Positions 40,216 to 56,663 of a stretch of 64,000 nt of DNA are shown here, in pieces. Both the position numbers and the translations under genes were made by a program. Under the pieces are notes generated by a model. That model did not search any database and had not been told where the DNA came from. It was given only the letters and a program-made list of their open reading frames with translations. Source of the stretch: Sedimentisphaerales bacterium. Its GTDB lineage: Bacteria; Planctomycetota; Phycisphaerae; Sedimentisphaerales; UBA12454. Each line of letters starts with the position of its first letter. The first letter of the stretch is position 1. The stretch spans positions 4,119-68,118 of the forward strand of contig JBEKEA010000007.1 of the NCBI GenBank assembly GCA_050014075.1, read 5' to 3'.

Positions 40216-40222
40216 TTCCTTT

Positions 40223-41266
40223 TTACTGATTTTGCGTCAGCACCGCGTTAAGCTTCGATTCGGAATCGACCAGAAAGTTGCCTGAAGTAACAACGGTCTG
40301 ATTTTCAGTCAGGCCCTGCAGAACTTCATAATATCCCTGCACCTTTGGCCCTAATTTAACTTCTCGTGACTCGAAATAGCCGTTCGGCTCAGCGATAAAT
40401 ACAATTTTTTTGGTGCCGCTGTCCATAACTGCCTCATTCGGCACAGCGAGTTTTTCGCCGAGGTCGTATATTATTTTCGCATCGACATACATCTCAGGTT
40501 TAAGTTTATTTTCAGGGTCCTTTACAAGAACTCTGACTTTAAGAGTTCGTGCGGTTCTGTCGAAAATCGGGGCGACAGAAACAACAATACCCTCAAAAAC
40601 CTCGCCGGGATAGGCGGCAGTTTCAATTTGAACGGCCTGAGTCTCTTTAACAAGAGCCATTTCATATTCATAGATAGTTATGTAAACCCAGACCTTCCCA
40701 TTTTCAGGAAGGTACAGGTATTGCTGCGGCTGGCCTTTCTTTTCGAGTTCCGCGATTTCCGTATTGCTCATTCCGAGAAGGAGAAGTTTGCGTTTCGTAG
40801 CGTTAACAAGCGGGTTCAATTGTTCGTCGGTATATTTAAGACTGCTCGACTGCATAGTTTGCCGCGTCTGGATGGATTGGAGATATTCCTGCTGAGCGAC
40901 AAACAAATCCGGGTCGTAAGCGACGATACCGACAGTCAAAACCTGGCCGGTCAAACGACGCTTTTCGATTTTTTCCGTTTTAACGCCGATTAACTGCTGT
41001 TTTTCAGAGTTAATATAAACACCCGCGGTTGTTTGAGTTTTTATGTCGGCAGCAGGCTGATTGGCGGAAGTTTGCCTTTTAACAAGACTCATACCGCAAA
41101 TTGGGCACTCGCCCGGCTTATCGGAAGTATAATTCGGATGCATCGGGCAATAGTAATCTTTAGTTCCGCTTGTGGAGGAGGATTGCCCGGCCGGCCGCAT
41201 AATAATAAATCCCAGTATGATTACTATTATGACCGCAGCAGCTATGAAAACTTTTTTGTTCTTCAT
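40223..41266 (-). CDS. cusB: Efflux RND periplasmic adaptor (CusB-like) with an N-terminal heavy-metal-binding domain
   Basis: YYCPMHPNYTSDKPGECPICGMSLV Cys-rich domain followed by a membrane-fusion-protein barrel-sandwich/beta-barrel region. Confidence 0.85.
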   Translation of the reverse strand: MKNKKVFIAAAVIIVIILGFIIMRPAGQSSSTSGTKDYYCPMHPNYTSDKPGECPICGMSLVKRQTSANQPAADIKTQTTAGVYINSEKQQLIGVKTEKIEKRRLTGQVLTVGIVAYDPDLFVAQQEYLQSIQTRQTMQSSSLKYTDEQLNPLVNATKRKLLLLGMSNTEIAELEKKGQPQQYLYLPENGKVWVYITIYEYEMALVKETQAVQIETAAYPGEVFEGIVVSVAPIFDRTARTLKVRVLVKDPENKLKPEMYVDAKIIYDLGEKLAVPNEAVMDSGTKKIVFIAEPNGYFESREVKLGPKVQGYYEVLQGLTENQTVVTSGNFLVDSESKLNAVLTQNQ

Positions 41267-41288
41267 AATTATACTCTTTCAGCTTTTG

Positions 41289-41588
41289 CTATTTTGCGAA
41301 TTGAGGCAGTTTACTTAGGTATTTTTCCGGATTTTTCTCGAATTCAGCTTTGCATTGTGTGCAGCAGAAGTAAACTTTTTTCCCCTTGTATTCGACGAAT
41401 ACATTTTTGTCTATCGGATTACCCGTCATAACCGGACAAATCGTCTGTTCCGCAGAAGCTGCAGGTTGAGTCTGAGTAACAGAGTTAGCGGCCGGCGAAG
41501 ACGTCGGTGGCGGCGAAGATTGCTTTTTGCAGCCATTCACAAAAAATAATACGGTAATCATAAAAACTGCTGATAAAATTGTTCTCAT
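41289..41588 (-). CDS. YHS-domain lipoprotein (putative periplasmic metal-binding protein)
   Basis: Lipobox FVNGC. YHS/TRASH pattern CPVMTGNPIDKNVFVEYKGKKVYFCCTQCKAEFEKNPEKY. Confidence 0.8.
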   Translation of the reverse strand: MRTILSAVFMITVLFFVNGCKKQSSPPPTSSPAANSVTQTQPAASAEQTICPVMTGNPIDKNVFVEYKGKKVYFCCTQCKAEFEKNPEKYLSKLPQFAK

Positions 41589-42877
41589 TTTGTATTCCTT
41601 TCAGGATTTTGAGATATTTTATTTTCAGGAAATTCTTTTGATAGTTCTACGCCCGTAAGCATTTCAAGCTCTGCAAGTTTTTGCGAGTTGTCGGCCAATG
41701 ACCTTTCATAAAGAAGCTGATAATCGAGCAGCCCCTGCAACGCATCGAGCAGAGCCAGAAAATCAATAGTTCCAGACTGATAAGCGTTTTCAGATGCAAC
41801 CAGGTGTTCCTTTGACTTAGGAATTAAAACGTCCCCGTACAGATGAATTTTCCTCGTGCTGTCCTCGAATTCAAAAAGAACCTGCTGAGTCGTCACGGCA
41901 AGAGTATTCTGCATCTGTTCTTTTTCTTTCGCCGCCTGGTTAACCATCGCCTCTGCCTGTCTTTCGCCGGCTTTATAACTATCCCGCCAAAGAGGAATAT
42001 TGATGGCAACAACTGGCATAATCCTGGAACGGCCGTCCCTGCCCATACCGTCGTCAATTGCAACGCCCAGCCCGATATTGGGATAAAACTTTTTTTCCGC
42101 CAGTTTCTCGCCGCTCCTGGCCGCGTCAATATTGTATCCGAGCGCTTTTATGTCCGGGTTGTTCTGCATTACAAGAGAATATAACATTTCGAAATCCAGC
42201 GTTACCGATTTGCGTTCGGGCTTTGTCGGCCAGCCGAGTTCTGCGACAACAGGCCGATTTAAAATACTGTTTAATCTGATTGCCAGCGGCCGTCGATACG
42301 CGTTAAGACTTTTAATATTGTCTTCAACCGTAGCCAAAGTTATCTGTGCTTTAATTATATCCGGATGCATAGAAGTCATAGCGGCATATCTGCTGCGCGC
42401 GACTTGTTCGAAATGCCTCAAAAGGTCGATATTCTCGTTGGTAATCTCGATAGACCTGTGCAAAAAGCAATACTCATAAAACCATCGTTTTAATTCATTT
42501 AGGATTTCAAGCCGCTTAGCATCATACTTTTTGGAAGCGGCATTTGATAAGGCCGATGCAATATCAGTTCTTGCCGGAATTGTCCCAAACCATGGAAATT
42601 CCTGCATAACTTCAAATGTGCTCCGAGTAGGTGTTTTTTCAGTTGCATAGCCGTATTTTAGCTGCGGGTCAGGAAGCGTCTTTGCCTGTTTTACCTGTTC
42701 GGATGCACCGAGGTATTCCTGATAAGCCGCCTCAAGACCGGCATTGTTCGCTAAAGCAATTGTAATATATTGCTCAAGCGTAACAGGAGAATTGTTATCA
42801 GCAGGTAATGTGGCTGTTTTGGCAGGACATACGGAAATCCATGCCAAAAAAAATAGACAAAAAGTCAAATTTTTCAT
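41585..42877 (-). CDS. TolC-family outer membrane efflux protein (CusC-like)
   Basis: 430 aa from ATG 42877 (MKNLTFCLFF signal peptide). Two-repeat OEP architecture and a 4-nt overlap with the YHS gene. Confidence 0.8.
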   Translation of the reverse strand: MKNLTFCLFFLAWISVCPAKTATLPADNNSPVTLEQYITIALANNAGLEAAYQEYLGASEQVKQAKTLPDPQLKYGYATEKTPTRSTFEVMQEFPWFGTIPARTDIASALSNAASKKYDAKRLEILNELKRWFYEYCFLHRSIEITNENIDLLRHFEQVARSRYAAMTSMHPDIIKAQITLATVEDNIKSLNAYRRPLAIRLNSILNRPVVAELGWPTKPERKSVTLDFEMLYSLVMQNNPDIKALGYNIDAARSGEKLAEKKFYPNIGLGVAIDDGMGRDGRSRIMPVVAINIPLWRDSYKAGERQAEAMVNQAAKEKEQMQNTLAVTTQQVLFEFEDSTRKIHLYGDVLIPKSKEHLVASENAYQSGTIDFLALLDALQGLLDYQLLYERSLADNSQKLAELEMLTGVELSKEFPENKISQNPERNTK

Positions 42878-43001
42878 ATTGAGGCCCCGATTAAATTTGC
42901 ATTGATTATAACAGCACCTCTCACGAATACTCAACTAATTATTTCAATTTAATCCGACAACCCCTAGTCAATTTCAGAGGTATAATTTAAACTTTCGCTC
43001 A

Positions 43002-43929: not shown

Positions 43930-45393
43930 CTATTTTTTCTTAGCTACTTTCTTAGCTATTGGTTCTTCGGCATTTGTATAGACAGGCGGAGGGCCATTAA
44001 AATCAGTTACCTTTAATTGCTGTAGTTCTGTTGGGGTAAGAACAGGATTATCGATTATTCTTGGAGTTATGAATACAACAAGTTCGCTGATAGTTGAATC
44101 ATCGCCCTGGAACCGGAATGCAGCGCCAACCACAGGCATATCGCCGAGGAAAGGTATTTTATTAATTTGTTTTGTAGTTTCCTTTTTGCGAAGACCTCCA
44201 AGAACAATCGTGCGGCCATTTTCAACCAGCAGCGTTGTATCGGCTTCGCGTTTATCAACAACCGGCTGAGAAAACGTGTTGGTAGCGGTACCAATTATTA
44301 CAGAGCCTGTTTGAACACTGAATTTCGGCTTTAATTGCAATCGTACCATAGCCTCGCGGGTAACATGAGGAGTAACTTCGAGCTCCACACCGACTTCTCT
44401 AAACGCTGTCGAGCCGATACTTCCACCAGAAGAGGTGTCAGTGATTTGCTGATATGGAATTTCAGAAACAATTTTTATATCTGCTTTCTGATTATCAAGA
44501 ACCAGAATTCGTGGATTGGCAAGCAGCTTGGCATCGATATTTTCTTTCTGAGCTCTTAATAAAGCATCTATATCAAGTGTGGGAGTGAGCCAACCGAAAC
44601 GCAACGCTCCTGTAGTACTTTGAGTTTTGCCGGTAGAGCCACTGAAAGCACCTGTCTCAAACGGATTCGTGGAGCCTGTAGGATTTTCGCCTGTTGAAAG
44701 AATTCCTGCTGTGCCGTATGCCGCTTTACCGCCAGAGGTATATGTAGTATTACGGCCTACCTGCCATTCAATACCGAGGTCCATCCTGTCCTTGCTGGTT
44801 ATGTCATAGATTCTCGCTTCAACTTCTATCTGAGGCGTTATTCGGTCAATCTCTTCCATATAGGCATCTATGGCCTTTATTTTGCTTTCACTATCAATAA
44901 CCATTATATTACTAGTGCCGGGATTAGAAGATAACGAGCCTCGCGATGAAATAAATTTCTTTAATGACGCTTCAACCTCTGCGACATTGGCATAAGCAAT
45001 CCGATAAATCTTGCTTACAAGCCTTTCAGATGCTTCATTCATCTCATCAAGAGGTAATACTCTTAACATATTATTACTCGCAACATAGCCGTAACCCTGC
45101 GTGATAAGAATATTATTTAGAGCTTCCTCCAAAGGAATGTTTGTAAGGGTAGCGGTTACATTGCCTATGACCTTGGGGCTTTTGACTATATCAACACCCG
45201 ACTGATCAGCTATTATCCTTAACACATCGTCGATGGGAGTGTTCCTGAAATCAACGCTTATTCTTTTCTGCATTCGCTGCTCAAACGTTAATTTATTTCC
45301 AGTGTTGCTGTCATTAACATCGGCAGCGGCAGCAGCATAGCTTGCGACAAAAACCGTCAATGTTACAAACAATACTAATTTATTAAGCTTCAT
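43930..45393 (-). CDS. Secretin (PilQ/GspD family)
   Basis: C-terminal secretin block IPFLGDMPVVGAAFRFQGDDSTISELVVFITPRII and N-terminal N0/STN-like repeats. The start is moved to ATG 45393 (MKLNKLVLF signal peptide). Confidence 0.88.
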   Translation of the reverse strand: MKLNKLVLFVTLTVFVASYAAAAADVNDSNTGNKLTFEQRMQKRISVDFRNTPIDDVLRIIADQSGVDIVKSPKVIGNVTATLTNIPLEEALNNILITQGYGYVASNNMLRVLPLDEMNEASERLVSKIYRIAYANVAEVEASLKKFISSRGSLSSNPGTSNIMVIDSESKIKAIDAYMEEIDRITPQIEVEARIYDITSKDRMDLGIEWQVGRNTTYTSGGKAAYGTAGILSTGENPTGSTNPFETGAFSGSTGKTQSTTGALRFGWLTPTLDIDALLRAQKENIDAKLLANPRILVLDNQKADIKIVSEIPYQQITDTSSGGSIGSTAFREVGVELEVTPHVTREAMVRLQLKPKFSVQTGSVIIGTATNTFSQPVVDKREADTTLLVENGRTIVLGGLRKKETTKQINKIPFLGDMPVVGAAFRFQGDDSTISELVVFITPRIIDNPVLTPTELQQLKVTDFNGPPPVYTNAEEPIAKKVAKKK

Positions 45394-45446
45394 ATAGTTG
45401 TGCCTTTCATAATATTTTGACACAAAAAAATATCCTTTATCTATCG

Positions 45447-46175
45447 TTATCGCCGGACTTCCTGCGTCCACTTTTTACCGTCAATTTCAAATTCGATATT
45501 GTTTTTATTTATTTTTACTACAGTTGCCCCTGATACCTTGTCGCCCTGGTGCACTATCTTGTCATCAATTACGGCAGACGGGCGTTCACTATAAACAATA
45601 CCTTTGACAACAATGGCTACATTTTCGCCCTGACCGCTGGTAGACACCCCGGCCTGCATAGGGTCGCGAAGTGTTTCCGGATATTTTTCTGGTGTCTGCC
45701 AATTAATTCCCCCTTCGGAACCGCCTGCAGCGCCGCCGGCATTTGTCACTGCTGGATTTTGAGCATTTACTGCCGGTATAACCTGGGCATTTGCCGAAGC
45801 AGGTGTGGACGATTTTAATACATGAGTAACCACAAAAATTAAAATGATAAAGAGAGCTAATATTAAAACAGCCATTTTTTTCTGCTTGGCGACATCAACG
45901 CCGGGTTTAGGCGCAAAAAGTTTATTTTCAATTTGTTTCAAATATTTACGCCAGGGAATCGGAGCAGAATTTTTTACAGCGGCAGTTGATTTTAGAGAAG
46001 CTGTTTGCGGCGACGGCTGGATAGTTTGCCCAGGCCGAACTGATGACGAAAGTAGTTCATCGACTATCAACGGCTGCTCTGAAGCACCGCCTGATTGCTG
46101 CGAATTATCGTTTTTCGGAATCGGCACGCCTTCGAAAATCGCTGAAATTTTCTTGTTTAATCCGTTCTTTGCCAT
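45447..46175 (-). CDS. Bitopic GspC/PilP-like protein (cytoplasmic N-terminus, one TM, Ala/Gly/Pro linker, C-terminal beta domain)
   Basis: TM segment MAVLILALFIILIFVVTHVL. The C-terminal VVKGIVYSERPSAVIDDKIVHQGDKVSGATVVKINKNNIEFEIDGKKW resembles secretin-interacting HR/PilP domains. It lies immediately upstream of the secretin. Confidence 0.5.
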   Translation of the reverse strand: MAKNGLNKKISAIFEGVPIPKNDNSQQSGGASEQPLIVDELLSSSVRPGQTIQPSPQTASLKSTAAVKNSAPIPWRKYLKQIENKLFAPKPGVDVAKQKKMAVLILALFIILIFVVTHVLKSSTPASANAQVIPAVNAQNPAVTNAGGAAGGSEGGINWQTPEKYPETLRDPMQAGVSTSGQGENVAIVVKGIVYSERPSAVIDDKIVHQGDKVSGATVVKINKNNIEFEIDGKKWTQEVRR

Positions 46176-46927
46176 TATACGACCTCTTTAGCCAAAATTT
46201 CGTATTCAATCGCACCCCGACTTCGAGGAGCATAGGACTGAATAGGTTCGCCCGCGCTCGGCGCCTCTGCCAGTTTTATTGTCCTGTGAATAACGGTATC
46301 TAATAGCAGGGTGGTAAAAAATTCTCTCATCTGATCCTGTATCTGCCTGCTGAGGAGAGTCCTGTCTTCCACAAAAGTAAGCAGTATGCCGCATATTTTC
46401 AGGCTGCTGTTGAAACGCACCTTAACAATATTTATGGTCTCAAGCAGCTGTTTTAATCCTTCAAGGGCGTAATAATGAGCTTGGACAGGAATTATTACCT
46501 CGCTGCTGGCTACCAGCGCGTTCAGCGTCAGCAATCCCAGCGACGGCGAGCAGTCGATAACACATATATCAAAATTGCTGTTTACACTTTCGAGCCTTTG
46601 ACTGAGAACATATTCTCTGCCCGTAAGGGATGCCATTTCGACCTCCGCTCCGGACAACAAAATATTGCTCGGAACAAGTCTAAGTCCCCTGATGTTGGTT
46701 TCGAGAATAACCTTAGACATAAGGACTTCGGGGTTGGATATAACATCGTATATTGTTTTTTCTGCCGTTTCAGGATCGTAGCCTAAACCAAGGGTGGCAT
46801 GTCCCTGCGGGTCAAGGTCAATCAGCAATACGCTAAGCCCCTGCCCTGCAAGAGATGCTGAAAGATTCACGGCCGTTGTGGTCTTGCCGCATCCGCCTTT
46901 TTGATTTGCTATCGCTATTGTTCTCAT
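46175..46927 (-). CDS. ParA/MinD/Soj-family P-loop ATPase embedded in the pilus/secretion operon
   Basis: Deviant Walker A AIANQKGGCGKTTTAVNL, then LLIDLDPQG, then Walker B-like VIDCSP. 250 aa with no HTH extension and no adjacent parB. Confidence 0.85.
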   Translation of the reverse strand: MRTIAIANQKGGCGKTTTAVNLSASLAGQGLSVLLIDLDPQGHATLGLGYDPETAEKTIYDVISNPEVLMSKVILETNIRGLRLVPSNILLSGAEVEMASLTGREYVLSQRLESVNSNFDICVIDCSPSLGLLTLNALVASSEVIIPVQAHYYALEGLKQLLETINIVKVRFNSSLKICGILLTFVEDRTLLSRQIQDQMREFFTTLLLDTVIHRTIKLAEAPSAGEPIQSYAPRSRGAIEYEILAKEVV

Positions 46928-46928
46928 T

Positions 46929-47498
46929 TTAACTACCCTGCGGTTTTTTTACGAAAACTGACAAATCCATATTCACCAAACAGGTCAAATCATCCGGGTT
47001 GTCATGAGAAATTGTAAATTTGTCCACGAAAATAACAGGCCGATGTCTTTCCACTGCATTGAGGAAAGCGGCGAATTTATTAAAATCAGCCTTGAAACGG
47101 ATACTTATCTGATTGGCACCGATGTACTGGCAACCAGGTATCTCTTTACTGTCACGATTGTCCTGAACTTTAACACTGAATAAATCAACTTTTATCTCGT
47201 TGGCTATCTGGCCCAGGTCAAATGTCAAACCAACCATATCCTCATGGTTGGCGACAAAACCTTTTAATTTGCTTCTCCATTGCCCCATCTGCTCATTCAA
47301 CTGAACCTGAACATCTTTTTGACTTATCTTTAGCACGGCGTCTAACGTCTGTTTTTTTTCGGTAAGCTGCCGATTAATCTGCTCTCTGCTCGTTCTCTGG
47401 GGCGCCACCAAAATCAAATAAATGAGAAAAAACAGAAGGAAACAGCTCACCCACGCCAAAGCCGCTGATTTAACATATTTTTTATTAACATTAATCAT
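46929..47498 (-). CDS. pilO: PilO-like inner-membrane alignment protein
   Basis: 189 aa: short N-terminus, one TM, a coiled coil and a C-terminal alpha/beta domain. It follows the PilN-like gene. Confidence 0.55.
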   Translation of the reverse strand: MINVNKKYVKSAALAWVSCFLLFFLIYLILVAPQRTSREQINRQLTEKKQTLDAVLKISQKDVQVQLNEQMGQWRSKLKGFVANHEDMVGLTFDLGQIANEIKVDLFSVKVQDNRDSKEIPGCQYIGANQISIRFKADFNKFAAFLNAVERHRPVIFVDKFTISHDNPDDLTCLVNMDLSVFVKKPQGS

Positions 47499-47510
47499 AT
47501 AATAAACCTG

Positions 47511-48164
47511 TCATATCCCCGGTTTAAATGAACAATCTATCTGATACGAAACGACATCCTGCCCTTTTAATTTTTCAACCCCCTGTGAAACACTTATATT
47601 ATCGAGTTGTGGGCCAAATACGGCTGACGAACGAAGGCTGTCCTGAAAATCCCTGATTGACTGTCCATGAACGGATCCTGAAGTTTCAAATACATTTATC
47701 TGCAGTGTTCTTACTGGAACAGAAACATCTGTCGTTTTACCGGTTTCTTTCGAAAAAACTTTTTTCGTAATGTTATCTTCCTTAACATTAATCCCTGTGA
47801 GCAGAATTGAATTCGGCATATTTTTAACTATTTCAACAAGAACCGGTGTCCACTGAATATGGTTCTTTATGTTCGTCGCAACCTCCGACAAGCAGCCATT
47901 CGCAATTTTTTTTTCACTTTCAAATGTCTTTTGCAATGCCGCCGCCTCAGACATTTTACTAATCTGTGTATCGCAGCCTATTATTTCCTGCTTTTGCACC
48001 GATAAGACAATACTGCTTCGCATATAATAACCAAACATTATTAACGCGATAATTACCGGAACCGCCACTGTCACCGCTGCCACAGCTATGTTCTCGGGTC
48101 TGTTCCTGACGGGAATGCCCCGACCTTTCAATAAATCAATTGTGAACATTCTCATATTGCTCAT
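47511..48164 (-). CDS. pilN: PilN-like inner-membrane alignment protein
   Basis: 217 aa: conserved short N-terminus before a single TM (IAVAAVTVAVPVIIALIMFGYY). There is a 4-nt overlap with pilM. Confidence 0.55.
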   Translation of the reverse strand: MSNMRMFTIDLLKGRGIPVRNRPENIAVAAVTVAVPVIIALIMFGYYMRSSIVLSVQKQEIIGCDTQISKMSEAAALQKTFESEKKIANGCLSEVATNIKNHIQWTPVLVEIVKNMPNSILLTGINVKEDNITKKVFSKETGKTTDVSVPVRTLQINVFETSGSVHGQSIRDFQDSLRSSAVFGPQLDNISVSQGVEKLKGQDVVSYQIDCSFKPGI

Positions 48165-49261
48165 ATCGCCCTCATAGCAAGACCTGCTGCAACTGCCATT
48201 CCTGGACCTTTTTTGCGAAGAATCTCCGCATAGGGTGCAGACGCATCATAGCTTATTTTTTCAAATGGATTCCATAACACAACGGCAGGAAACTGAGTTT
48301 TCAGCAAATCTATAAATCCATCAACAAGAGCAAAACCGCCGCAGACGTATATTTTTTCAATCGTCTCAGACTTATTCCGTATGGCGTAATAACGCAATGT
48401 CTCAGTTACATCAGTAATTAATTTATTGCAGGCAGCTTCCATACCTTCACGAAGGCTGGGGTTGATTTTGTCCGGATTTTCATGACCGGCAAGAATACTT
48501 TCGACTGTTCCCGCTGGAACGTTACCATTTGATGCGATATATTCAATAATTGCTTTGCCTGCGAAAGTGAGGTCTCGAATAAAAGGTAAATCATCGTTGC
48601 TTACAATTGCCAGGGTTGCATAAGAGCTTCCAATATTCAATATTGCAGTTGTCTCTGCTGTATATTCCTGGCACCCTCGGAAGCAATTCAAAAGCGCCAA
48701 TCCATCCACATCCACAAGAATACTGTGAAGAGCGGAACTTTCTATAAATCTGGTTTTCTCTTTGAGAAGTTTATTTGTAGTCGCCACTAAAATGCCGTTG
48801 ACGCTATTCGTATCGTTCGATATCAACTGATAATCAACAACGCCATCGTCAGTGTTAAATGGAGAAACCTGTTTCGCTTCAAGCATAACGGCTCCATTTA
48901 TTTCTTCAGGCAATAACTGGGGAAATGCGAAATGACGTACCATCACTTCAGGACCGCAAACCCCGCAGACCGCGAACTCCGTCTGAATTCCGGCTGAACG
49001 AAGACACTTACGGATTGCATTTAAAACGTTACTGCCGCTGTTTTCATCATTACCTTCGATTTCAATTTTCTCTTCAATAGCCGCAATACCGGCCGCGGTA
49101 ACCCTGTAACCGCTGTCGTTCTTGTCAAGTTGAACTATCTTGATTGCGGACGTTCCTATATCCAGACCAAAAACCTCAAGCCGGCCGACATTTAGCTTTC
49201 GTTTCCAGTTTTTATCCGCAAATTTTTTCAGCTTTACTTGTTGTTCTGCAATCCATTTCAT
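48161..49261 (-). CDS. pilM: PilM-like actin-fold pilus assembly ATPase-like protein
   Basis: 366 aa. FGLDIGTSAIKIVQL phosphate-1 motif and GGFALVDGF near the C-terminus, typical of PilM/FtsA-like proteins. Confidence 0.8.
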   Translation of the reverse strand: MKWIAEQQVKLKKFADKNWKRKLNVGRLEVFGLDIGTSAIKIVQLDKNDSGYRVTAAGIAAIEEKIEIEGNDENSGSNVLNAIRKCLRSAGIQTEFAVCGVCGPEVMVRHFAFPQLLPEEINGAVMLEAKQVSPFNTDDGVVDYQLISNDTNSVNGILVATTNKLLKEKTRFIESSALHSILVDVDGLALLNCFRGCQEYTAETTAILNIGSSYATLAIVSNDDLPFIRDLTFAGKAIIEYIASNGNVPAGTVESILAGHENPDKINPSLREGMEAACNKLITDVTETLRYYAIRNKSETIEKIYVCGGFALVDGFIDLLKTQFPAVVLWNPFEKISYDASAPYAEILRKKGPGMAVAAGLAMRAI

Positions 49262-49631: not shown

Positions 49632-51515
49632 CTAATTTCGATAATCGTTCCAGCCCGAAGGTGTGGCAATATATTTGCTTTGCAGCCCCATATTGCCGGG
49701 CAAAATACCATCGAGCAATCTACTATCGAGATAATAATGCTTTTTATAACCTGTATCGGCTCCGCCTCCGACCATACCTCGGCAGGCCTCGGTAAGAGTC
49801 CCACGTATAATAAGGTTATCATATGTTCCGGGGACAGATTCCCTGTATCCTCCGTACGTAGTGCTCCCGCTTGTTCGAGCAAGATCCTCAGCACCCCATC
49901 CGCCGCCGCCAACAGTTATCGCGGCCTCTACAACCATATTATGGTCCCTCACCGAGACTGGCGTAAACATACGTCTACAGTTTGAAGTCTGTGACTTGCC
50001 GGCATCAGGCTGACCGATAGGTACATACTGAAACGTATTTGTCCCTACTGTTATAATAGGGTTATTGGACGCCGGGCCAGGGTAGCCCCCACTTGATGGA
50101 CGTTGACTCAAACACGGGTCAACAACTTTGACGACACCCTGCGCAATCAGTCCAAGTATATTAGGATTATCCTGAGTTGGTACGCCGTTTGCATCTGTCG
50201 TATGTGCACCATCCACTGTTATGGGATTAGTAATCCATATATTTCCTCCTGTTCCATCATCTTCTCTGGCCGCCACAACAGTAATTTTACCCTTCACCAC
50301 GTTCCGCGTACCGACCAAATTCGCGTCGCTGCTTCCTATGATAACATTACCCTTGACATAAATCTGTCCGCCGGGCTGAGCTGACACCCCTCCAAACGAT
50401 TGAGTAACATAAGTATCGCTAACCGGCTTAATAATCCTCTCGCCAGTGGTGTCGGCATTCTGGTTCCTATAATGATAACCATAAATATAGTATCTCTGAA
50501 ATGTTGCCCCGCTGCTGCCAGGCGTTATCCTGAAATCATTTGTTTTGCTGTCGCTGTTTTGTTCAAAGCCCCAAACCGTACAATTATTGGTGATGCGCAC
50601 CTTACCGACGTTGTTGGAATCCACAAAAAACTCAAGCTGAACCGCAGGCACACGATTGGCGACTGGAGGAGTTGTCCCCCCCGTCATAGCGGCCGGTGTA
50701 AACTGATAAGCGGTTAGTGTGCTGCTTTGGAAACGGTTAATCTTGCTTTGCACGGTAGCTTCATCCGTCACTCTGGAGTCGGGCTGGTTGAAATAAATCC
50801 CCCCCTTAAAAAGGCTCATTATACTACTATATTTATCTGAGCCGCCTGAAGTATATCTGTTTTCACCCATGGCCACAGGCCGCGTAAACGTTGGACTGCC
50901 CGATATATAAATATCCATTATATCAGGACTATCATTAAGCTTATTAATATGCAGCGGCATATCAATAGTTTCCCCGTCAACATAGTATACAGCAGCTGTC
51001 GTCGAAGAACTACTTGGAATCCTGCATTTTCCCATATCCCAGCCGCTTATTGCCTGTATTACCTTCGCATCAATCGTCCTGTCAAACGCACCGCTATGGC
51101 CGTTCGACACAACCCTGTAAACAGGCTGGGCATTAACAAACGTATAAAACTGTACGCTGTAATCACAATTGCTGCCCAGAAATGTCAAGTTGCCCGTTGA
51201 GCCGGCTGTTCCAAGCGAGTCGAGCAAACTCCCCTGCTGGCCCATCCAAAAAAGCACCTGTTCATAGCCGGCCTCGGCAGCCAGCATCGACGCCATTTCA
51301 TTTTTCTGCTGAATCGCCTGACGTCTTACTCCATAGGAAATCGTTAACACGCCTATTCCAAGGATAGACAAAATCATCAGGACCATAACGGCCAGGACAA
51401 GCACCGACCCGCTGCGACACGATTCTGCAGCGATACCTGCCCTGATTGTAATTCGTCGCACCACGGCGAATCCGTATCTTTTTTCGTCATATTGTTTTCG
51501 TCTGTTTTTCATCAT
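49632..51515 (-). CDS. Large GspK/PilX-like minor pseudopilin-type protein (627 aa)
   Basis: The N-terminal SGSVLVLAVMVLMILSILGIGVL hydrophobic helix followed by MLAAEAGYEQ resembles GspK/PilX N-terminal domains. The rest is rich in Gly/Thr/Asn/Val, as in a beta structure. Confidence 0.55.
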   Translation of the reverse strand: MMKNRRKQYDEKRYGFAVVRRITIRAGIAAESCRSGSVLVLAVMVLMILSILGIGVLTISYGVRRQAIQQKNEMASMLAAEAGYEQVLFWMGQQGSLLDSLGTAGSTGNLTFLGSNCDYSVQFYTFVNAQPVYRVVSNGHSGAFDRTIDAKVIQAISGWDMGKCRIPSSSSTTAAVYYVDGETIDMPLHINKLNDSPDIMDIYISGSPTFTRPVAMGENRYTSGGSDKYSSIMSLFKGGIYFNQPDSRVTDEATVQSKINRFQSSTLTAYQFTPAAMTGGTTPPVANRVPAVQLEFFVDSNNVGKVRITNNCTVWGFEQNSDSKTNDFRITPGSSGATFQRYYIYGYHYRNQNADTTGERIIKPVSDTYVTQSFGGVSAQPGGQIYVKGNVIIGSSDANLVGTRNVVKGKITVVAAREDDGTGGNIWITNPITVDGAHTTDANGVPTQDNPNILGLIAQGVVKVVDPCLSQRPSSGGYPGPASNNPIITVGTNTFQYVPIGQPDAGKSQTSNCRRMFTPVSVRDHNMVVEAAITVGGGGWGAEDLARTSGSTTYGGYRESVPGTYDNLIIRGTLTEACRGMVGGGADTGYKKHYYLDSRLLDGILPGNMGLQSKYIATPSGWNDYRN

Positions 51516-51549
51516 TTTACACCTGCCTTCGGCAATAATTTAGTATTGC

Positions 51550-52242
51550 CTATCGAGGCCACATATTTCGCATCAGCACAGATGTCATCACTTTAAGCTT
51601 ATCGCCGCTACTGGGGTCTGTCAGAATGGCATTCATCCTGACACATCCATAGCCCTGACCGCTTACGGTTGTATGACTGAAAATTTTTATGTTTGGGTCG
51701 GCTGTTACATTGTTTGCGAGAACTAACGTATTTATACCCGCGGTATTTCTGGTACCCCCGCCGGTTGGTATCGCTCCAACATTGGTTACCCAATTATAAG
51801 GTCCGTAATCAACTTTTATCTGACCGCTGCTAAGATAAAACAAGGCGTATGCCGTTGCTGTCTTCGTAACATCCATCAACTGATGCGAATCTGTTGAATC
51901 GAGTGGAACATCCCAGTATCTAAATTCCACTGCATCGCCTGAAACTACAGTATCCACATTTGGCGTAGCCGACACTACAGGGGTAAAGGTAGTTCCTGCT
52001 ATTCCATAAATTACATAATTATTGCGGTTAGCCATCCTTCCCATTTTTCCGAATGCCGTCGCTAACATCAAAGAATCTTCCTGAATTTGGCTGTGAGCTT
52101 TGTTATAAGTCTGCTGCCAGGCTTGGGTCTGGCTGACGATAAGTGCACCTACCACCAATACGAGCATTAATGAAATAGACATTGCAACCACCAGCTCAAG
52201 CAGAGTAAGCCCAGAATAAAATTTCCTGTTATTATGCTTCAT
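51550..52242 (-). CDS. Prepilin-type N-terminal cleavage/methylation domain protein (minor pseudopilin)
   Basis: N-terminus KFYSG-LTLLELVVAMSISLMLVLVVGALIV. Confidence 0.75.
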   Translation of the reverse strand: MKHNNRKFYSGLTLLELVVAMSISLMLVLVVGALIVSQTQAWQQTYNKAHSQIQEDSLMLATAFGKMGRMANRNNYVIYGIAGTTFTPVVSATPNVDTVVSGDAVEFRYWDVPLDSTDSHQLMDVTKTATAYALFYLSSGQIKVDYGPYNWVTNVGAIPTGGGTRNTAGINTLVLANNVTADPNIKIFSHTTVSGQGYGCVRMNAILTDPSSGDKLKVMTSVLMRNMWPR

Positions 52243-52271
52243 TATTAATCGCCTTTTGATTCTTCGCCATC

Positions 52272-52751
52272 TCAGGTATCAACCCTGATATAAGTAGTCA
52301 AAATAACCGGTGAAGTACACAATGTACCCCCCACAGGCCATCTGACCATTACTGTTAACTGCCTGAGTTTTGCTCCGGTTACAGGGTCGGGAGTAAAATC
52401 GCTCCAGCCTAAAATTATCTGCATCGGCACATTGTTTACAGTGTTAAGATAAATCAAATTATTCAGGGTTGTACCTATGGCCGTGCCCATTGTAAAACCA
52501 GTAGGAACTGTTGCGGAAGTAAAACCAAGGTGTAACGCGGTAGGGTCGTATGTGGTCAAACCTCCGGTGCTCATCCAGTCATCCATAAGCAACTGTGCGG
52601 CGTGTGTGGCAGTGGTTTGGGTGTTAGCTATTTGGCTGTGTTGGACTGCATAATATTGATAGTTCAAAGCGCCTATGGCAACTATAACAATAACAGTCAT
52701 AGCCACCATTACCTCAATCAGGGTAAACGCTTTTGAGATTCTTGAGCACAT
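52272..52751 (-). CDS. Prepilin-type N-terminal domain protein (minor pseudopilin)
   Basis: N-terminus SKA-FTLIEVMVAMTVIVIVAIGAL, with Ala instead of Gly at position -1. Confidence 0.7.
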   Translation of the reverse strand: MCSRISKAFTLIEVMVAMTVIVIVAIGALNYQYYAVQHSQIANTQTTATHAAQLLMDDWMSTGGLTTYDPTALHLGFTSATVPTGFTMGTAIGTTLNNLIYLNTVNNVPMQIILGWSDFTPDPVTGAKLRQLTVMVRWPVGGTLCTSPVILTTYIRVDT

Positions 52752-52769
52752 ACCATTTCAAGCTCCCCA

Positions 52770-52800
52770 TTCAAAAATTAGGGGGGGCATAGCCCCCCCA
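52770..52800 (-). terminator. Strong rho-independent terminator/attenuator after the major pilin gene
   Basis: On the minus strand gggggggc-tat-gccccccc (8-bp G/C stem, plus-strand 52781..52799) is followed by taattttt. Confidence 0.75.
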
Positions 52801-52891
52801 CCTTGCAATTATCGTTATTAACTAATTGCCAAAGACTGCTGCAGCACCTATAGGCCAATCAAGTTATTAACCTTTTCAAACTATACAGATA

Positions 52892-53317
52892 CTACCATGC
52901 CCAGACCGATGCAGCGCCCGCAGCCTGCGTAAGGGTATTTGTGGTGGCGGGAGTAGTCGGATAGCCTGTTCTACCTTTGGAAGCATCAACAGAAATGGTG
53001 AATGCTACCTGACCTGCCGCATTGACCGCAACGCCGCTAACTGTGTAGCAAGCTTGAAGGAAGTACGTACCATCAAGGTCGTTGGCACCAAAACCTAAAT
53101 CGGTTGTCAAAACCGGTGCGGCTACAGCAGCAGTACCTTTTTCGGCTGCATACGCACGGATAGCTGATGCTATTGTGCCGGCTGCTGATTTGCCTTCTGA
53201 CCACTTGGCTGAGTCGATTCTGCCTCTCATTAGAGGAATCGCTACGGCTGCCAAAATGCTGACGATGAGTACAACCACCATCAATTCTACCAATGTGAAA
53301 CCTTTTCTGTTCTTCAT
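52892..53317 (-). CDS. Major (pseudo)pilin, GspG/type IV pilin-like
   Basis: MKNRKG-FTLVELMVVVLIVSILAAVAIP prepilin signal, 141 aa. It is the first pilin after gspF and has its own terminator. Confidence 0.85.
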   Translation of the reverse strand: MKNRKGFTLVELMVVVLIVSILAAVAIPLMRGRIDSAKWSEGKSAAGTIASAIRAYAAEKGTAAVAAPVLTTDLGFGANDLDGTYFLQACYTVSGVAVNAAGQVAFTISVDASKGRTGYPTTPATTNTLTQAAGAASVWAW

Positions 53318-53462
53318 TTTATTTTCTCCTAAAAAAAAAATTTAATATTCTTTTTGATACTCACTTTCAGTATCGGCCACACAATCTTCCAACTAAAGTA
53401 TAAAATACATTTTTAATATAGCCAAAATTCGGTTTAATATTGTTTACGCTGATTATGAGACG

Positions 53463-54674
53463 TTATGACTTTCCCATCGAGAAAATCGGCAGATACAGCG
53501 CAATCACTACTACCAGCACAATCGCTCCAACCGTTACAATCATTACCGGCTCAAGCAAACTCAACAGAGTGGTCACCAGGGATTCCACTTTTCGCTCATA
53601 ATAGTCCGCGGTCCTCTCCAGCATTTGGGGCAGTGAACCGCTTTCCTCGCCAATCTGTACCATCTTGACCAGCATATTCGGGAAGAAACCGGTTGAGACC
53701 ATGCTCAAGGAAATATTTGAACCTTCGACGATGCGCTCCCTCGTCTTTACGATTGCGTTTTTAATAATCTCATTGTTGCTCATTGTGGTAAGAATATTGA
53801 ACACTTCAAGCACCGAAACGCCGGAAGCAAGTAATGTTGACATTGTTCTGCAGAACGTAACGACAAATGTATTGCTGATTACTTTACCTATTAAAGGAAG
53901 CGAAAGAAACGTTTTGCTGAACCAATAATGTCCTTTTTGGGTTCTGGTATAAATAAGAATTATCGAGGTTACTATGGCGACTAATGCGCCTACAATATAA
54001 ACGACATTGTGGCGGATGGCGTTATAAAACCCCATAAACGCCCGTGTAAAAGCAGGAAGCTGTCCGCCGAGCTGGTCAAATATAACTTGGAATCGAGGAA
54101 TAATAAAAGTCATTATAACTACAACCATTAAAATAATAAACACCAACATAAAGACTGGATATGCCAGCGCTCCTTTGACTTTCTTGCCAAGTTTGTCCTT
54201 GCTGCCGAAATACTCCGCCAGTCTCTTTAATGCCTGCGGCAAAGTACCGCCGGTTTCGCCAGCCATTATCATAGCGACCGATAGTTTATTGAAAACTTTC
54301 GGATGTTCTGCAAGGCCGGATGAAAAAGACTCGCCTCCTTCTACTTTTGTTAGAACTTCCTTCATAATCTGCGCAAGTCGCGGATTTTCGATATCTTCGG
54401 CAATAGTGCTCAAAGCCGCGGTAATTGGAACTCCGCTTTCCAGCATTGTCGTCATCTGCCAGCAAATCGACGACAAGTCGCCTGATTTAACTCGTTTTCG
54501 GTATGAAGAGCTCTTGGCCTTTCCTCCTGTTCCTACCGTTATCTCATCTACTGATATAGGAATAGTCCCCTGCTCCCGAAGCCAGTTAAGTAAATCGTAC
54601 GAGGAGGCAGACTGTTTGAGACCTTCCTTACGTTCTCCCGCAGTTGTTCGAACAACATATTTGAAATTTTTCAT
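53463..54674 (-). CDS. GspF/PilC-family platform protein
   Basis: 403 aa, two repeated T2SSF domains and 3 TM helices. It lies downstream of the ATPase. Confidence 0.88.
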   Translation of the reverse strand: MKNFKYVVRTTAGERKEGLKQSASSYDLLNWLREQGTIPISVDEITVGTGGKAKSSSYRKRVKSGDLSSICWQMTTMLESGVPITAALSTIAEDIENPRLAQIMKEVLTKVEGGESFSSGLAEHPKVFNKLSVAMIMAGETGGTLPQALKRLAEYFGSKDKLGKKVKGALAYPVFMLVFIILMVVVIMTFIIPRFQVIFDQLGGQLPAFTRAFMGFYNAIRHNVVYIVGALVAIVTSIILIYTRTQKGHYWFSKTFLSLPLIGKVISNTFVVTFCRTMSTLLASGVSVLEVFNILTTMSNNEIIKNAIVKTRERIVEGSNISLSMVSTGFFPNMLVKMVQIGEESGSLPQMLERTADYYERKVESLVTTLLSLLEPVMIVTVGAIVLVVVIALYLPIFSMGKS

Positions 54675-54896
54675 CTATCGAGCCTGACCGCTTAAGCACA
54701 AATCATTATTTGCCTGCACTTTTGCTTGATGTATCATAATCAACGACAATATCGGCATCCGATAATCTCAGGTTTAGTAGAATCCCATTTTGATGCACGC
54801 GATAAATCCTTTGTTGCCGCGTTTTAAGGCTTCCAGTGATATTTATATCGGAACTTGATATGAAAAGCAGACCGCCGTTTCAGTGCGAATTGGCTC

Positions 54897-56663
54897 TTAT
54901 GTCCTTATATCTTCCGTAAATGTTACGCTCAAAACTTCCTCTGCCGTAGTTAACCCCTGCAGCATTTTACTAACGCCGCTCTCAAGCAATCCGCCATAAC
55001 CCTTTTGCCTGGCTATCGCTCTTATTTGCATTTCAGTGGCACCGGCTATAAGTTTTTCGCGTATTTCATTATTCATAACAAGAAACTCAAACACCGGCAA
55101 CCTGCCTTTATAACCTGTTTCGCCGCAGGCCTTGCAGCCTTTACCGTGATAAAACACTGCATCTTTAGCCTGTTGAGTGTCCAGTTGCAAACGCTTCATA
55201 ACTTCTTTGCTCAGGACAACCGGTTCTTTGCAATGCTCACAAATTTTTCTTACAAGCCGCTGTGCGACTATTAAATTCAGCGACGATGCCAGCAGATAAG
55301 GTTCTATTCCCATATATACCAGCCTGCTTATCGCGCTCGGCGCGTCATTGGTATGGAATGTGGTCAAAACCAAATGTCCCGTCAGGGATGCTTTTATCGC
55401 AATCTCCAGCGTTTCTTTATCTCTGATTTCGCCTATTAAAATTACATCCGGGTCTTGCCTTAAAATCGCTCGCAGGCACGACGCGAAATCAAGTCCGATT
55501 TCCGGCTTCACCTGGACCTGGTTAATGCCTTTAAGACGATATTCGACAGGGTCTTCTACCGTCGTAATATTTTCTGTCGGGTCTATCAGATGATGCAAGG
55601 CCGCGTACAGCGTCGTGCTTTTACCGCTGCCGGTAGGCCCCGTGATAATTATAATGCCGTGCGGCTGTTCGAGTATCATCTTGAATTCCTCAAGCAGTTT
55701 CGGCTCAAAACCGAGCTTTGCAATATCGTGGCTCGTCGATCCAGAATCCAGAATTCGCATTACTATTTTTTCGCCGTATATTGTCGGAATCGACGAAACA
55801 CGAACATCTATATTTCGCCCTACTGTCTTAATCTTGAATCTGCCGTCCTGCGGCAGACGCCGTTCCGCGATATCCATTTCTGACAATATCTTGATTCTTG
55901 TAACAACTGCCGCCTGCATCTTCCTCGCCGGCGGAACCATATCGCGAAGCGCTCCGTCAATTCGCATACGAATTGCCATTGAATATTCCTGTGGTTCGAT
56001 ATGAATATCGCTTGCTCGGCTTTTCACAGCCTGGCTCAGAAGCAAATCCACAAATTGAATAACAGGCGCCTGAGTTGCCGCTTCTTCACTTGGCGCATCC
56101 GCGTCAGAACTGCCCTCTTCCAGAATCGATTCCACTTTCTGGTCGTCTTCGTCGATTTCCGTCTCTACAAGGTCGCGAAGCTGTTGTTCTTCAACATCGC
56201 TGCCGTGATATATCGCCTCTATAGCATGAATTATTTCATCGTGTGTGCTGATTACAGGCTTGATTTTCCGTTTCAGTTTTGGCGCAATTGTATCTAATGC
56301 GATAACATCCAGCGGGTCTGCCATTGCTACAATAATATTGTTGTTTTCTTCGCCGATTGCTACAAGACAGAAACGTTTGGCGACCGATTCCGGCAGCATC
56401 CGAGCGATACTCATATCTATTTTGCTGACTTCATTTAATGGTACGTATTGCAGCGAAAGATATTCCGCTAATAGACGGGTAATCGTGGCGGGATCCGACA
56501 CTTTTGTTCTCTGAAGAACTTCGCCTAATCTGCCTCCGTTTATGCGCTGTTCGTTTAACGCTGAAGACAATGTGTCATGATCGATGAAGCCCTTTGAAAT
56601 CAGCCATTCACCAAAGGGAACTTTGGTTCCCGTTACAGAAATCTTTTCTTTAACAGATGTCAT
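54897..56663 (-). CDS. GspE/PilB-family secretion/pilus extension ATPase with an MshEN/T2SSE_N-type N-terminal domain
   Basis: Walker A GPTGSGKST, Asp/His boxes, tetracysteine CEHC...CKAC. 588 aa. Confidence 0.92.
   Translation of the reverse strand: MTSVKEKISVTGTKVPFGEWLISKGFIDHDTLSSALNEQRINGGRLGEVLQRTKVSDPATITRLLAEYLSLQYVPLNEVSKIDMSIARMLPESVAKRFCLVAIGEENNNIIVAMADPLDVIALDTIAPKLKRKIKPVISTHDEIIHAIEAIYHGSDVEEQQLRDLVETEIDEDDQKVESILEEGSSDADAPSEEAATQAPVIQFVDLLLSQAVKSRASDIHIEPQEYSMAIRMRIDGALRDMVPPARKMQAAVVTRIKILSEMDIAERRLPQDGRFKIKTVGRNIDVRVSSIPTIYGEKIVMRILDSGSTSHDIAKLGFEPKLLEEFKMILEQPHGIIIITGPTGSGKSTTLYAALHHLIDPTENITTVEDPVEYRLKGINQVQVKPEIGLDFASCLRAILRQDPDVILIGEIRDKETLEIAIKASLTGHLVLTTFHTNDAPSAISRLVYMGIEPYLLASSLNLIVAQRLVRKICEHCKEPVVLSKEVMKRLQLDTQQAKDAVFYHGKGCKACGETGYKGRLPVFEFLVMNNEIREKLIAGATEMQIRAIARQKGYGGLLESGVSKMLQGLTTAEEVLSVTFTEDIRT

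Follow-up and report, generated by a model that had tools for sequence, protein, structure and literature searches.

Why would a partition-type ATPase be encoded in the middle of a pilus operon? The question is raised by a stretch of 64,000 nt from a Sedimentisphaerales bacterium of the Planctomycetota (contig JBEKEA010000007.1, positions 4,119 to 68,118), referred to here, at its full length, as the window. Its minus strand, to which all window coordinates below refer, carries one long type IV filament cluster that runs from PilB through the secretin. Within this cluster lies the gene for ParA (46175..46927), a 250-aa Soj-type ATPase with a deviant Walker A motif, and directly after it the gene for a protein that we call X (45447..46175), a 242-aa bitopic inner-membrane protein and the probable PilP/GspC-equivalent adaptor of the system. 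The answer that we favour, and consider fairly probable on sequence and analogy, is that ParA serves a type IVa-pilus-like machine as a dedicated accessory subunit, attached through X at the cytoplasmic face, and that ATP-bound ParA dimers are engaged by the N-terminal peptide of X and stimulated to hydrolyse ATP, in a cycle serving placement or assembly control.

A Soj-type ATPase within a pilus operon

ParA is a member of the ParA/MinD family and, by its sequence, is closest to Soj. It carries the Walker A motif NQKGGCGKTT at residues 8-17, with signature Lys10 and Lys15 (nt 46877-46906), the A' motif LIDLDPQG at residues 35-42 (nt 46802-46825) and the Walker B motif VIDCSP at residues 123-128 (nt 46544-46561). 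The profiles PF13614 AAA_31 (210 bits, E 2.8e-62, cutoff 27) and PF01656 CbiA (91 bits, cutoff 25.4) both match. Residues 2-249 align with solved Soj/ParA structures (8RAY, 4e-61; Thermus thermophilus Soj 1WCV, 1e-54), and since this alignment runs end to end, the protein has no N-terminal helix-turn-helix (HTH) domain and no C-terminal extension or helix. K10, K15, D37, D39 and D125 are invariant in the 34 ParAs of this type that are linked to pil genes. Judged by these residues, ParA is a catalytically competent Soj-type ATPase. A protein identical to it is recorded from a metagenome-assembled genome of the Sedimentisphaerales (Phycisphaerae).

Profiles for narrower classes stayed below their cutoffs. 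The ParA_partition equivalog NF041546 reached 110.7 bits (cutoff 180) and the TadZ/CpaE profile TIGR03815 only 23 bits (cutoff 154), the ATPase core starting at residue 2. MinD/FlhG (TIGR01968) gave 39.9 bits against a cutoff of 212.9, and the protein ends with the Soj core at residue 250. For BcsQ, TIGR03371 gave 71 bits (cutoff 157.85) and PF06564 a below-cutoff 47 bits; no bcs genes were identified among the window open reading frames (ORFs) scanned. Neither a ParB-like ORF nor a second ParA was detected within the window. No parB was found beside ParA in 85 related loci at E<1e-5 with an approximate B. subtilis Spo0J query, and this negative is weak, as the same query also missed short ParB-like ORFs in loci of Methanobacteria. 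The gene downstream of ParA is X, in which Pfam and NCBIfam profiles matched no ParB/Srx N-domain and no HTH.

The gene is coupled to its neighbours on both sides. The PilO-like stop codon TAA (46929-46931) and a single spacer base (46928) precede the ATG of ParA (46927-46925) in the sequence '...agt TAA a ATG aga', and the TAA of ParA overlaps the ATG of X in the junction TAATG (46173..46177; 'gta TAATG gca'). The original prediction, made from the letters and ORFs of the window, had described a genuine deviant-Walker-A ATPase of Soj size without HTH, with no parB next to it, coupled to both neighbours and forming an integral cistron of the operon; motifs, profiles, alignment and junctions bear out the first points, and the last is upheld by gene order in related genomes.

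A scan of species-representative genomes yielded 80 ParA loci, and 85 loci were used for locus-wide ORF searches. The order pilM-pilN-pilO-parA-X-secretin recurs on contigs whose ParA homologues are 83%, 70% and 67% identical to that of the window. When six-frame ORFs were compared with the window proteins, the full arrangement was retrieved in about 30 independent loci with ParA identities of 56-83%, and all three of the three loci sampled through X rather than ParA had the same order. Because the order is recovered from either gene, ParA is not a chance neighbour; as far as sequences can tell, Planctomycetota have conserved its gene as an integral part of a type IV pilus-like machine. A second pilus-linked layout was also detected, in which a ParA with the peptide in its own tail is encoded immediately upstream of PilB-PilC-...-PilMNO (L035 6319-7539, L037 6725-8092).

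Several variations on this theme were seen in the related loci. Tandem duplicate ParAs occur within the pilMNO-X operon of L004, L005, L007, L011 and L012, both copies being catalytically intact (P0023, P0035, P0071, P0104). Many pil-linked ParAs have a long acidic low-complexity tail ending in NNG(E/Q)A, which the window copy does not have. In L002 and L003 (8962-9246; 4773-5117), a 94-aa ORF is encoded between ParA and X, and pilM is preceded by an ORF of about 108 aa that resembles the C-terminal part of X; counterparts of the 94-aa ORF and of this HR-like ORF were found nowhere in the window.

In a neighbour-joining (NJ) tree of 94 sequences, with few references, two of them approximate, B. 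subtilis Soj (BsSoj), T. thermophilus Soj (TtSoj), 8RAY and the ParAs of Methanobacteria separate from those of Planctomycetota and Omnitrophota. The window ParA does not branch inside chromosomal Soj; it belongs to a Phycisphaerae-type clade of 60 sequences without Soj references (70/100 bootstrap), which comprises pil-linked, transmembrane (TM)-fused, PilB-adjacent and orphan ParAs. Nor is such a ParA the sole one of its genome in this group, several paralogues being present in CAYHAJ01 (L032, L035), CAYFUB01 (L030, L042) and CP070782.1 (L051, L086). The tree and these paralogues support, without proving, that the pil-linked ParAs are a specialised paralogue family. Marks specific to the clade are Cys13 in Walker A and His214, which replaces the Pro of the Soj 'IPRN' loop.

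The residues through which Soj binds DNA are R182, R194, R208 and R211 in TtSoj, equivalent to R189, K201, R215 and R218 in BsSoj (HpSoj-DNA paper, PMC6393308). Alignment with TtSoj and these equivalences place R189, R201, R215 and K218 at the same positions of the window ParA. Among the 34 pil-linked ParAs, position 189 is Arg in 27, position 201 is Arg in 33 and Lys in one, position 215 is Arg in 27 and Lys in five, and position 218 is Arg in 28 and Lys in six. The patch has decayed in the four TM-fused paralogues (L016, L017, L025, L027): all four have Ser at 218, and non-basic residues predominate at 189 and 215. Its retention in the soluble, pil-linked form, by contrast, suggests that selection maintains it there.

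The adaptor protein X and its N-terminal peptide

X belongs to an abundant family. A word index returned 173 homologues, nearly all of them full-length matches, and a search of 1.84 billion representatives retrieved 451 clusters at E<=1e-30, again almost all full-length. In an alignment of 36 homologues, the protein divides into five modules: a conserved basic N-terminal peptide (residues 1-20, MAKNGLNKKISAIFEGVPIP; 46116..46175), proposed here to be the ParA-docking and activating motif; a variable, S/Q/P-rich linker of about 55 residues, disordered in the AlphaFold model; a juxtamembrane motif, IxxKLFxPKxGVxxxKQK, followed by a TM helix at residues 101-120 (together residues 78-120; 45816..45944); and a periplasmic part (45456..45707) composed of the motif WQxPxxYPxxLRDPM (residues 157-173) and a C-terminal HR-type beta domain (residues 186-240). 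AlphaFold2 (AF2) placed helices at residues 75-86 and 95-121. The basic residues on the N-terminal side of the TM helix indicate an N-in topology. X has no lipobox; a cytoplasmic region of about 100 residues precedes its single TM helix. It is thus anchored by a TM helix rather than by lipid, and has an unusual cytoplasmic arm.

The C-terminal domain was modelled with a predicted local distance difference test score (pLDDT) of about 90. Foldseek aligned it with the GspC HR domain bound to GspD (3OSS_C; TM-score 0.77, root mean square deviation (rmsd) 2.5), with GspB (4WFW; rmsd 1.5) and with the PulC HR domain of the complex with PulD (6HCG_e); PilP (2Y4Y) was a more distant match. The PF16537 T2SSB profile scored 19.9 bits on X (cutoff 28.4), and this domain is precomputed on a few homologues. 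The matches to HR folds make X a PilP/GspC-equivalent link to the secretin, and its place in the model is probably that of PilP/GspC, between PilNO and the secretin, in agreement with the original description of the downstream gene as GspC/PilP-like.

The first 20 residues are the most conserved cytoplasmic element of X, with the consensus MAKxKAGLHKKVSxIFxGVPIP. Across the 36 homologues, which are otherwise 42-76% identical, L6, K8 and I13 never vary, and G5, F14, G16 and V17 rarely do. We searched 8260 six-frame ORFs of the 85 loci for the pattern G-[LIV]-x-[KR]-x-[LIVM]-x-x-[LIVM]-[FLIM] within <=14 residues of a Met and obtained 43 matches, where 3.9 were expected and shuffled sequences gave 8 at most. 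All but a few (L024, L059, L081) fall at the N-terminus of the ORF just downstream of ParA or in the tail of ParA itself, and two classes stand out: the X proteins, and short proteins encoded 3' of the ParAs of Methanobacteria. The latter begin with M(A/P)RKGLGKGLDSLIP, which is the canonical ParB-type N-terminus (GLGKGLDSLIP). These short proteins have 175-245 aa and went unseen by the full-length Spo0J query; the ParAs that they follow (L062-L064, L069, L071, L072, L075, L078, L079, L084) also have a GGCGK Walker A.

A profile built from the N-termini of X only, with a search space of one million residues, recovered variants of the peptide across the 85 loci at E values of 1e-9 to 2e-3. In most loci, the start of the peptide-bearing gene ranges in position from 62 nt before to 11 nt after the stop of ParA, and the product of that gene is not always X. 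L019 encodes two ParAs, one followed by a PilO with the peptide added to its N-terminus (1e-9) and the second by X. A 647-aa PilM-like protein encoded just after ParA in L053 begins with the peptide (profile 4e-4), as does a small ORF in L015-17, L027 and L028 (profile 1e-6 to 1e-9). In Planctomycetia and Omnitrophota (L057, L058, L066, L070, L080), a PilM-like protein with an N-terminus such as KKGIVSSIF, ENIVESIF or KDIIKKIF follows ParA, and the HR domain is fused to PilO in the same loci. Finally, the peptide is found in the C-terminal tail of ParA itself in L030, L035, L037, L040, L041, L049, L050 (profile 2e-3) and L051. Apart from L035 and L037, these cis-fused ParAs are orphans, with no pilus genes nearby, so the constant partner of the peptide is ParA and not the pilus. 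The peptide is nearly always encoded beside or within ParA, and on the evidence of gene position and motif its tie to ParA appears to resemble that of the ParB N-terminus to Soj. The original prediction had proposed a link through the cytoplasmic N-terminus of the downstream protein; the conservation of residues 1-20 and the placement of the peptide beside or fused to ParA elsewhere speak for that part of it, and physical contact is what we infer from them.

Some of the related ParAs have unusual architectures. The orphan ParA family (L040, L041, L049, L050, L086, L087; P0241-P0360) comprises proteins of about 297 aa with >2000 database matches at E<=1e-60; they carry a cis-fused activator-like sequence, RRGIQKxLxxIFxGVWIP, and an invariant C-terminal ...IEST, and their genes stand alone in variable contexts. 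In one of the TM-fused paralogues (L016 7001-10492), ParA continues into a TM helix and about 800 residues of Ig/cadherin-like repeats; two secretin-like genes precede this fusion, and a 90-aa ORF starting with a GLHKDVxxIFDGVWIP peptide follows it. Masked runs of N were suspected behind the long stop-to-stop ORFs around such ParAs; the ORFs contain no N and are real ParA-TM-repeat fusions. An Omnitrophota ParA in L076 (6989-9042) is extended at its C-terminus by an extra domain of about 110 aa. The gene after it encodes a degenerate MinD-like protein, and the N-terminus of the latter, MNKLKKLGKGLEDISYLF, is another match to the partner-peptide pattern.

A possible mechanism and its alternatives

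As ATP dimers, ParA/MinD ATPases bind a matrix, which may be DNA, bound by a C-terminal basic surface, or membrane, bound by an amphipathic helix. The ATPases are contacted and stimulated by the N-terminal region of a cargo-bound partner (PMC11407121). In Helicobacter pylori, ParA dimers on DNA are bound by the ParB peptide 1-MAKNKVLGRG-10. K5 and R9 of this peptide are the counterparts of K3 and K7 in B. subtilis Spo0J, which are stimulatory, with R10 of T. thermophilus Spo0J as a further equivalent (PMC11229316). The N-terminus of X, MAKNGLNKKISAIF in the window and MAKxKAGLHKKVSSIF in the consensus, has the same layout as the ParB N-terminal peptide, and on this likeness we propose a mechanism of three steps. 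ParA-ATP dimers would capture the N-terminal peptide of X; with its HR domain bound to the secretin, X would reach them from the inner membrane by means of a flexible arm of about 55 residues. The dimers would probably sit on the nucleoid, since ParA keeps all four residues of the Soj patch for non-specific DNA. Hydrolysis of ATP, stimulated by the peptide, would then free ParA. The machine, or a precursor made of X and secretin, would be tethered to nucleoid-bound ParA or ratcheted along it, and the outcome would be a decision on where, or how many, machines get built. The contact between ParA and X, the stimulation of the ATPase, DNA binding and the positioning or licensing outcome are all proposed by analogy with these systems. 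The AMIN domain of the secretin is the septal targeting element in Pseudomonas and Myxococcus, where it binds septal peptidoglycan (PMC5285504, PMC10653833), and where the secretin shows no such domain, as in this lineage, control of positioning may be important.

A number of observations weigh against this proposal. The 'invariant' K8 of the peptide is Ser in some relatives (GLQSE; L008, L010, L013). Searched against all PDB sequences, the X-peptide profile found no ParB and returned solely a thioredoxin at E 0.05, and in the 85 loci it did not match the canonical ParB-type N-termini of Methanobacteria. We claim, on these grounds, an analogy of motif and position and not homology to the ParB N-terminus. 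An AF2 model of a natural cis-fusion of ParA and peptide, P0241 (63-sequence alignment; output without contact or predicted aligned error data), has a good ParA core, and the motif appears in it only as a medium-confidence helix (268-277, pLDDT about 65). The aromatic residue of H. pylori ParA (HpParA) that contacts ParB Arg9, F52, is not conserved among these ParAs, being Tyr in the window and Y, H, C, L or I in relatives, and an argument from cation-pi contacts was dropped. DNA binding by ParA is predicted from four residues only. The wider clade that adds the ParAs with PilM-borne peptides has a bootstrap of only 25/100, and a single origin of all pilus-linked ParAs is not claimed. The search for parB in this genome covered the 64-kb window. 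Lastly, ParA could act as a static scaffold of the TadZ/BcsQ kind, or in secretin biogenesis in the manner of ExeAB, two less probable roles that are weighed below.

The alternative that survives best, which we regard as unlikely, is that ParA works in the static manner of TadZ/CpaE or BcsQ, as an assembly factor or landmark: attached through X to the cytoplasmic face of the machine, it would recruit or stabilise components such as PilM, PilB or PilC at a given site, with no nucleoid matrix and no cycling. Its basic residues would then serve another surface or reflect descent from Soj. TadZ/CpaE, the only ParA/MinD proteins known for pili, and the related BcsQ are polar assembly factors (PMC11407121), and the BcsQ profiles do match ParA below their cutoffs (PF06564, TIGR03371). 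The membrane-anchored paralogues without the basic patch show that some members of the clade can work without DNA, and the layout with ParA directly upstream of PilB (L035, L037) is equally in keeping with a static factor. However, the catalytic residues and all four positions of the DNA patch are kept in the pil-linked group, the extra N-terminal domain of TadZ is absent from the window ParA, and a long disordered linker ending in a basic peptide is typical of the partners of dynamic ParAs.

Another role, which we hold to be quite improbable, is that of a biogenesis factor: ParA and X would form a pair like GspA/GspB (ExeA/ExeB) or MshM, driving the transport or multimerisation of the secretin through the wall. 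The structural match of the X C-terminal domain to GspB and the weak PF16537 T2SSB match fit this, as does the order of the genes, an ATPase directly before a GspB-like protein with the secretin next; in addition, the Pfam scan matched no AMIN domain in the secretin and detected no pilotin. Nevertheless, the HR fold is common to GspC and PilP, which are regular subunits of the alignment complex. ExeA/GspA and MshM are AAA_22-type ATPases, and ExeA also has a membrane anchor and a peptidoglycan-binding domain, whereas the window ParA is a soluble Soj homologue with neither. A role specific to the secretin also leaves unexplained why the peptide occurs on cytoplasmic PilM and on orphan ParAs without a nearby secretin.

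That ParA is the chromosome-partitioning Soj of the organism, embedded in a pilus operon with ParB and parS elsewhere and an unrelated X peptide, is very improbable: its best solved homologues are chromosomal Soj/ParA, its database label is 'chromosome partitioning protein', its DNA patch is conserved and parB was inspected for in the 64-kb window only, but the tight two-sided coupling inside pilMNO-X-secretin is kept over 56-83% ParA identity, tandem duplications lie inside the operon (L004, L007, L011, L012), there are several paralogues per genome, the peptide travels with ParA, the clade stands apart from the Soj references, no parB was found in the window or, with the approximate Spo0J query, beside the 85 related ParAs, and the ParA_partition score falls short of its cutoff.

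Returning to ParA as an accessory subunit that is recruited by the peptide of X, a broader claim can be put forward tentatively. Planctomycetota and Omnitrophota might share a plug-in module for positioning. Its two parts would be a Soj-derived ParA clade (GGCGK, His214) and an activator peptide of about 20 residues, portable enough to have been grafted onto X, PilM, PilO, small proteins beside giant TM-anchored ParA fusions, or ParA itself. In these FtsZ-less bacteria with AMIN-less secretins, such a module could use the nucleoid to space or count type IV pilus-like machines, and it could underlie regular or polar patterns of pili and crateriform structures. We see this as possible, and as considerably more doubtful than the role proposed for ParA in the window.

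The surrounding cluster and comparison with known systems

The cluster holds the set of a type IVa machine, with PilB, PilC, prepilins, PilM, PilN, PilO and secretin all present. The secretin (43930..45471) has N0/STN, Secretin_N and Secretin domains (PF00263, 155 bits), and its PilQ score of 275 bits with TIGR02515 lies just under the NCBIfam cutoff of 284. Its ORF is listed from a GTG at 45471, overlapping the end of X; the ATG at 45393 is the likelier start, as it opens a typical signal peptide, MKLNKLVLFVTLTVFVASYAAAA, and leaves a gap of 53 nt after X. Upstream of ParA are encoded a PilO/GspM-like protein (46929..47498), recognised by Pfam and NCBIfam profiles, a PilN-like protein (47511..48164) with a weak PilN match and a position that is kept in relatives, and the actin-like PilM (48161..49261; PF11104, 146 bits), whose NCBIfam score of 123 is also just under its cutoff of 133. 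No terminator-like site was found on the coding strand between pilM and the secretin.

The remainder of the cluster (49632..56663) encodes a 627-aa PilX_N-like protein, two minor pilins, the major pilin (52892-53317), PilC (53463-54674) and PilB with T2SSE and MshEN domains (54897-56663). The 627-aa protein (49632-51515) has a weakly PilX_N-like N-terminus and probably belongs to the cluster as a giant minor pilin or as its tip protein; proteins of 570-620 aa occupy its slot in relatives. A strong G7/C7 hairpin with a T-run (52781-52799), directly 3' of the major pilin gene, resembles an attenuator-type terminator of pilin genes. A PilT retraction ATPase was not found within the 64-kb window, and PilT-sized T2SSE genes flank the secretin in the relatives L001, L008, L010 and L013. 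The window is otherwise ordinary chromosome, with genes for ATP synthase, SAM synthetase, HisRS, biotin synthase and a Cus-type efflux system. The latter, an RND efflux operon (OEP, HMBD-HlyD, AcrB-like; 37021-42934), lies just downstream of the pilus cluster and includes a small Cys-containing ORF of 99 aa (41289-41588) between its outer-membrane factor and membrane-fusion genes.

No published description of a ParA in pilMNOPQ or PilMNO-secretin operons, or in pili of Planctomycetota, was found in literature that was partially covered and included a 2024 review of the family. The placement of type IVa pilus machines is known for a few Proteobacteria only, where secretin AMIN domains bind septal peptidoglycan (PMC5285504, PMC10653833), and TadZ/CpaE of the Tad branch is the only ParA/MinD protein linked to pili so far (PMC11407121). 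By analogy with the ParA systems discussed, the locus probably points to a previously undescribed way of placing or licensing pilus machines. It suggests a second, independent solution to placement, in which a Soj-type ParA would be wired into the PilMNO-secretin alignment complex through a short peptide. X is abundant, with hundreds of clusters at 50% identity, and the proposal is directly testable, as definite residues can be named for the partner motif, for catalysis and for the putative DNA patch. It would offer a view of how partition ATPases get recruited to new cargos, relevant to the fields of ParA/MinD proteins and of type IV pili alike, and the peptide may be a natural, transferable ParA-recruiting tag of interest for the synthetic positioning of cargo.

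The accessory ATPases ExeA (GspA) and MshM resemble the window ParA in being encoded beside secretin and alignment genes and paired with a bitopic GspB-like protein; they differ in superfamily, being AAA_22 proteins, and no such domains were matched in ParA. With GspC, PilP and GspB, X shares the HR fold of its C-terminal domain and a gene just before the secretin. Unlike PilP it has no lipobox, unlike GspC it has no PDZ or coiled-coil domain, and it differs from all three in its cytoplasmic region of about 100 residues, which ends in the conserved peptide.

Compared with the Soj/Spo0J ParABS system, the family, size, catalytic motifs and four residues of the non-specific DNA patch are the same, and so is the position of the partner gene, immediately downstream and opening with a basic N-terminal peptide of the form G-L-x-K/R-x-hydrophobic-x-x-hydrophobic-hydrophobic. 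X, however, is not a ParB and has no CTPase or HTH domain; it is a membrane protein with an HR domain of the secretin-binding type. The proposed cargo is a protein machine and not parS DNA, and Cys13 and His214 are found in the ATPase of the window. TadZ/CpaE of the Tad (type IVc) systems is likewise a ParA/MinD protein encoded inside a type IV filament cluster, and is needed to place or assemble the Tad machine (PMC11407121). TadZ, a member of another branch, begins with a receiver-like domain, whereas the core of the window ParA begins at residue 2 and the machine beside it is of the PilB/PilC/PilMNO/secretin type.

The logic that we propose, an ATPase with a cargo-marking adaptor, is that of McdA/McdB in carboxysomes, of ParC/ParP and PpfA/TlpT in chemoreceptor arrays and of VirC1 in the type IV secretion system. 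In such protein-cargo ParA systems the adaptor contacts the ATPase through its N-terminal region, and the nucleoid is the likely matrix (PMC11407121). The cargo here would instead be an envelope-spanning type IV pilus-like machine, and the adaptor one of its structural subunits, X in the window and PilM or PilO in other lineages, bearing a portable motif that in some loci is even joined in cis to the ATPase itself.

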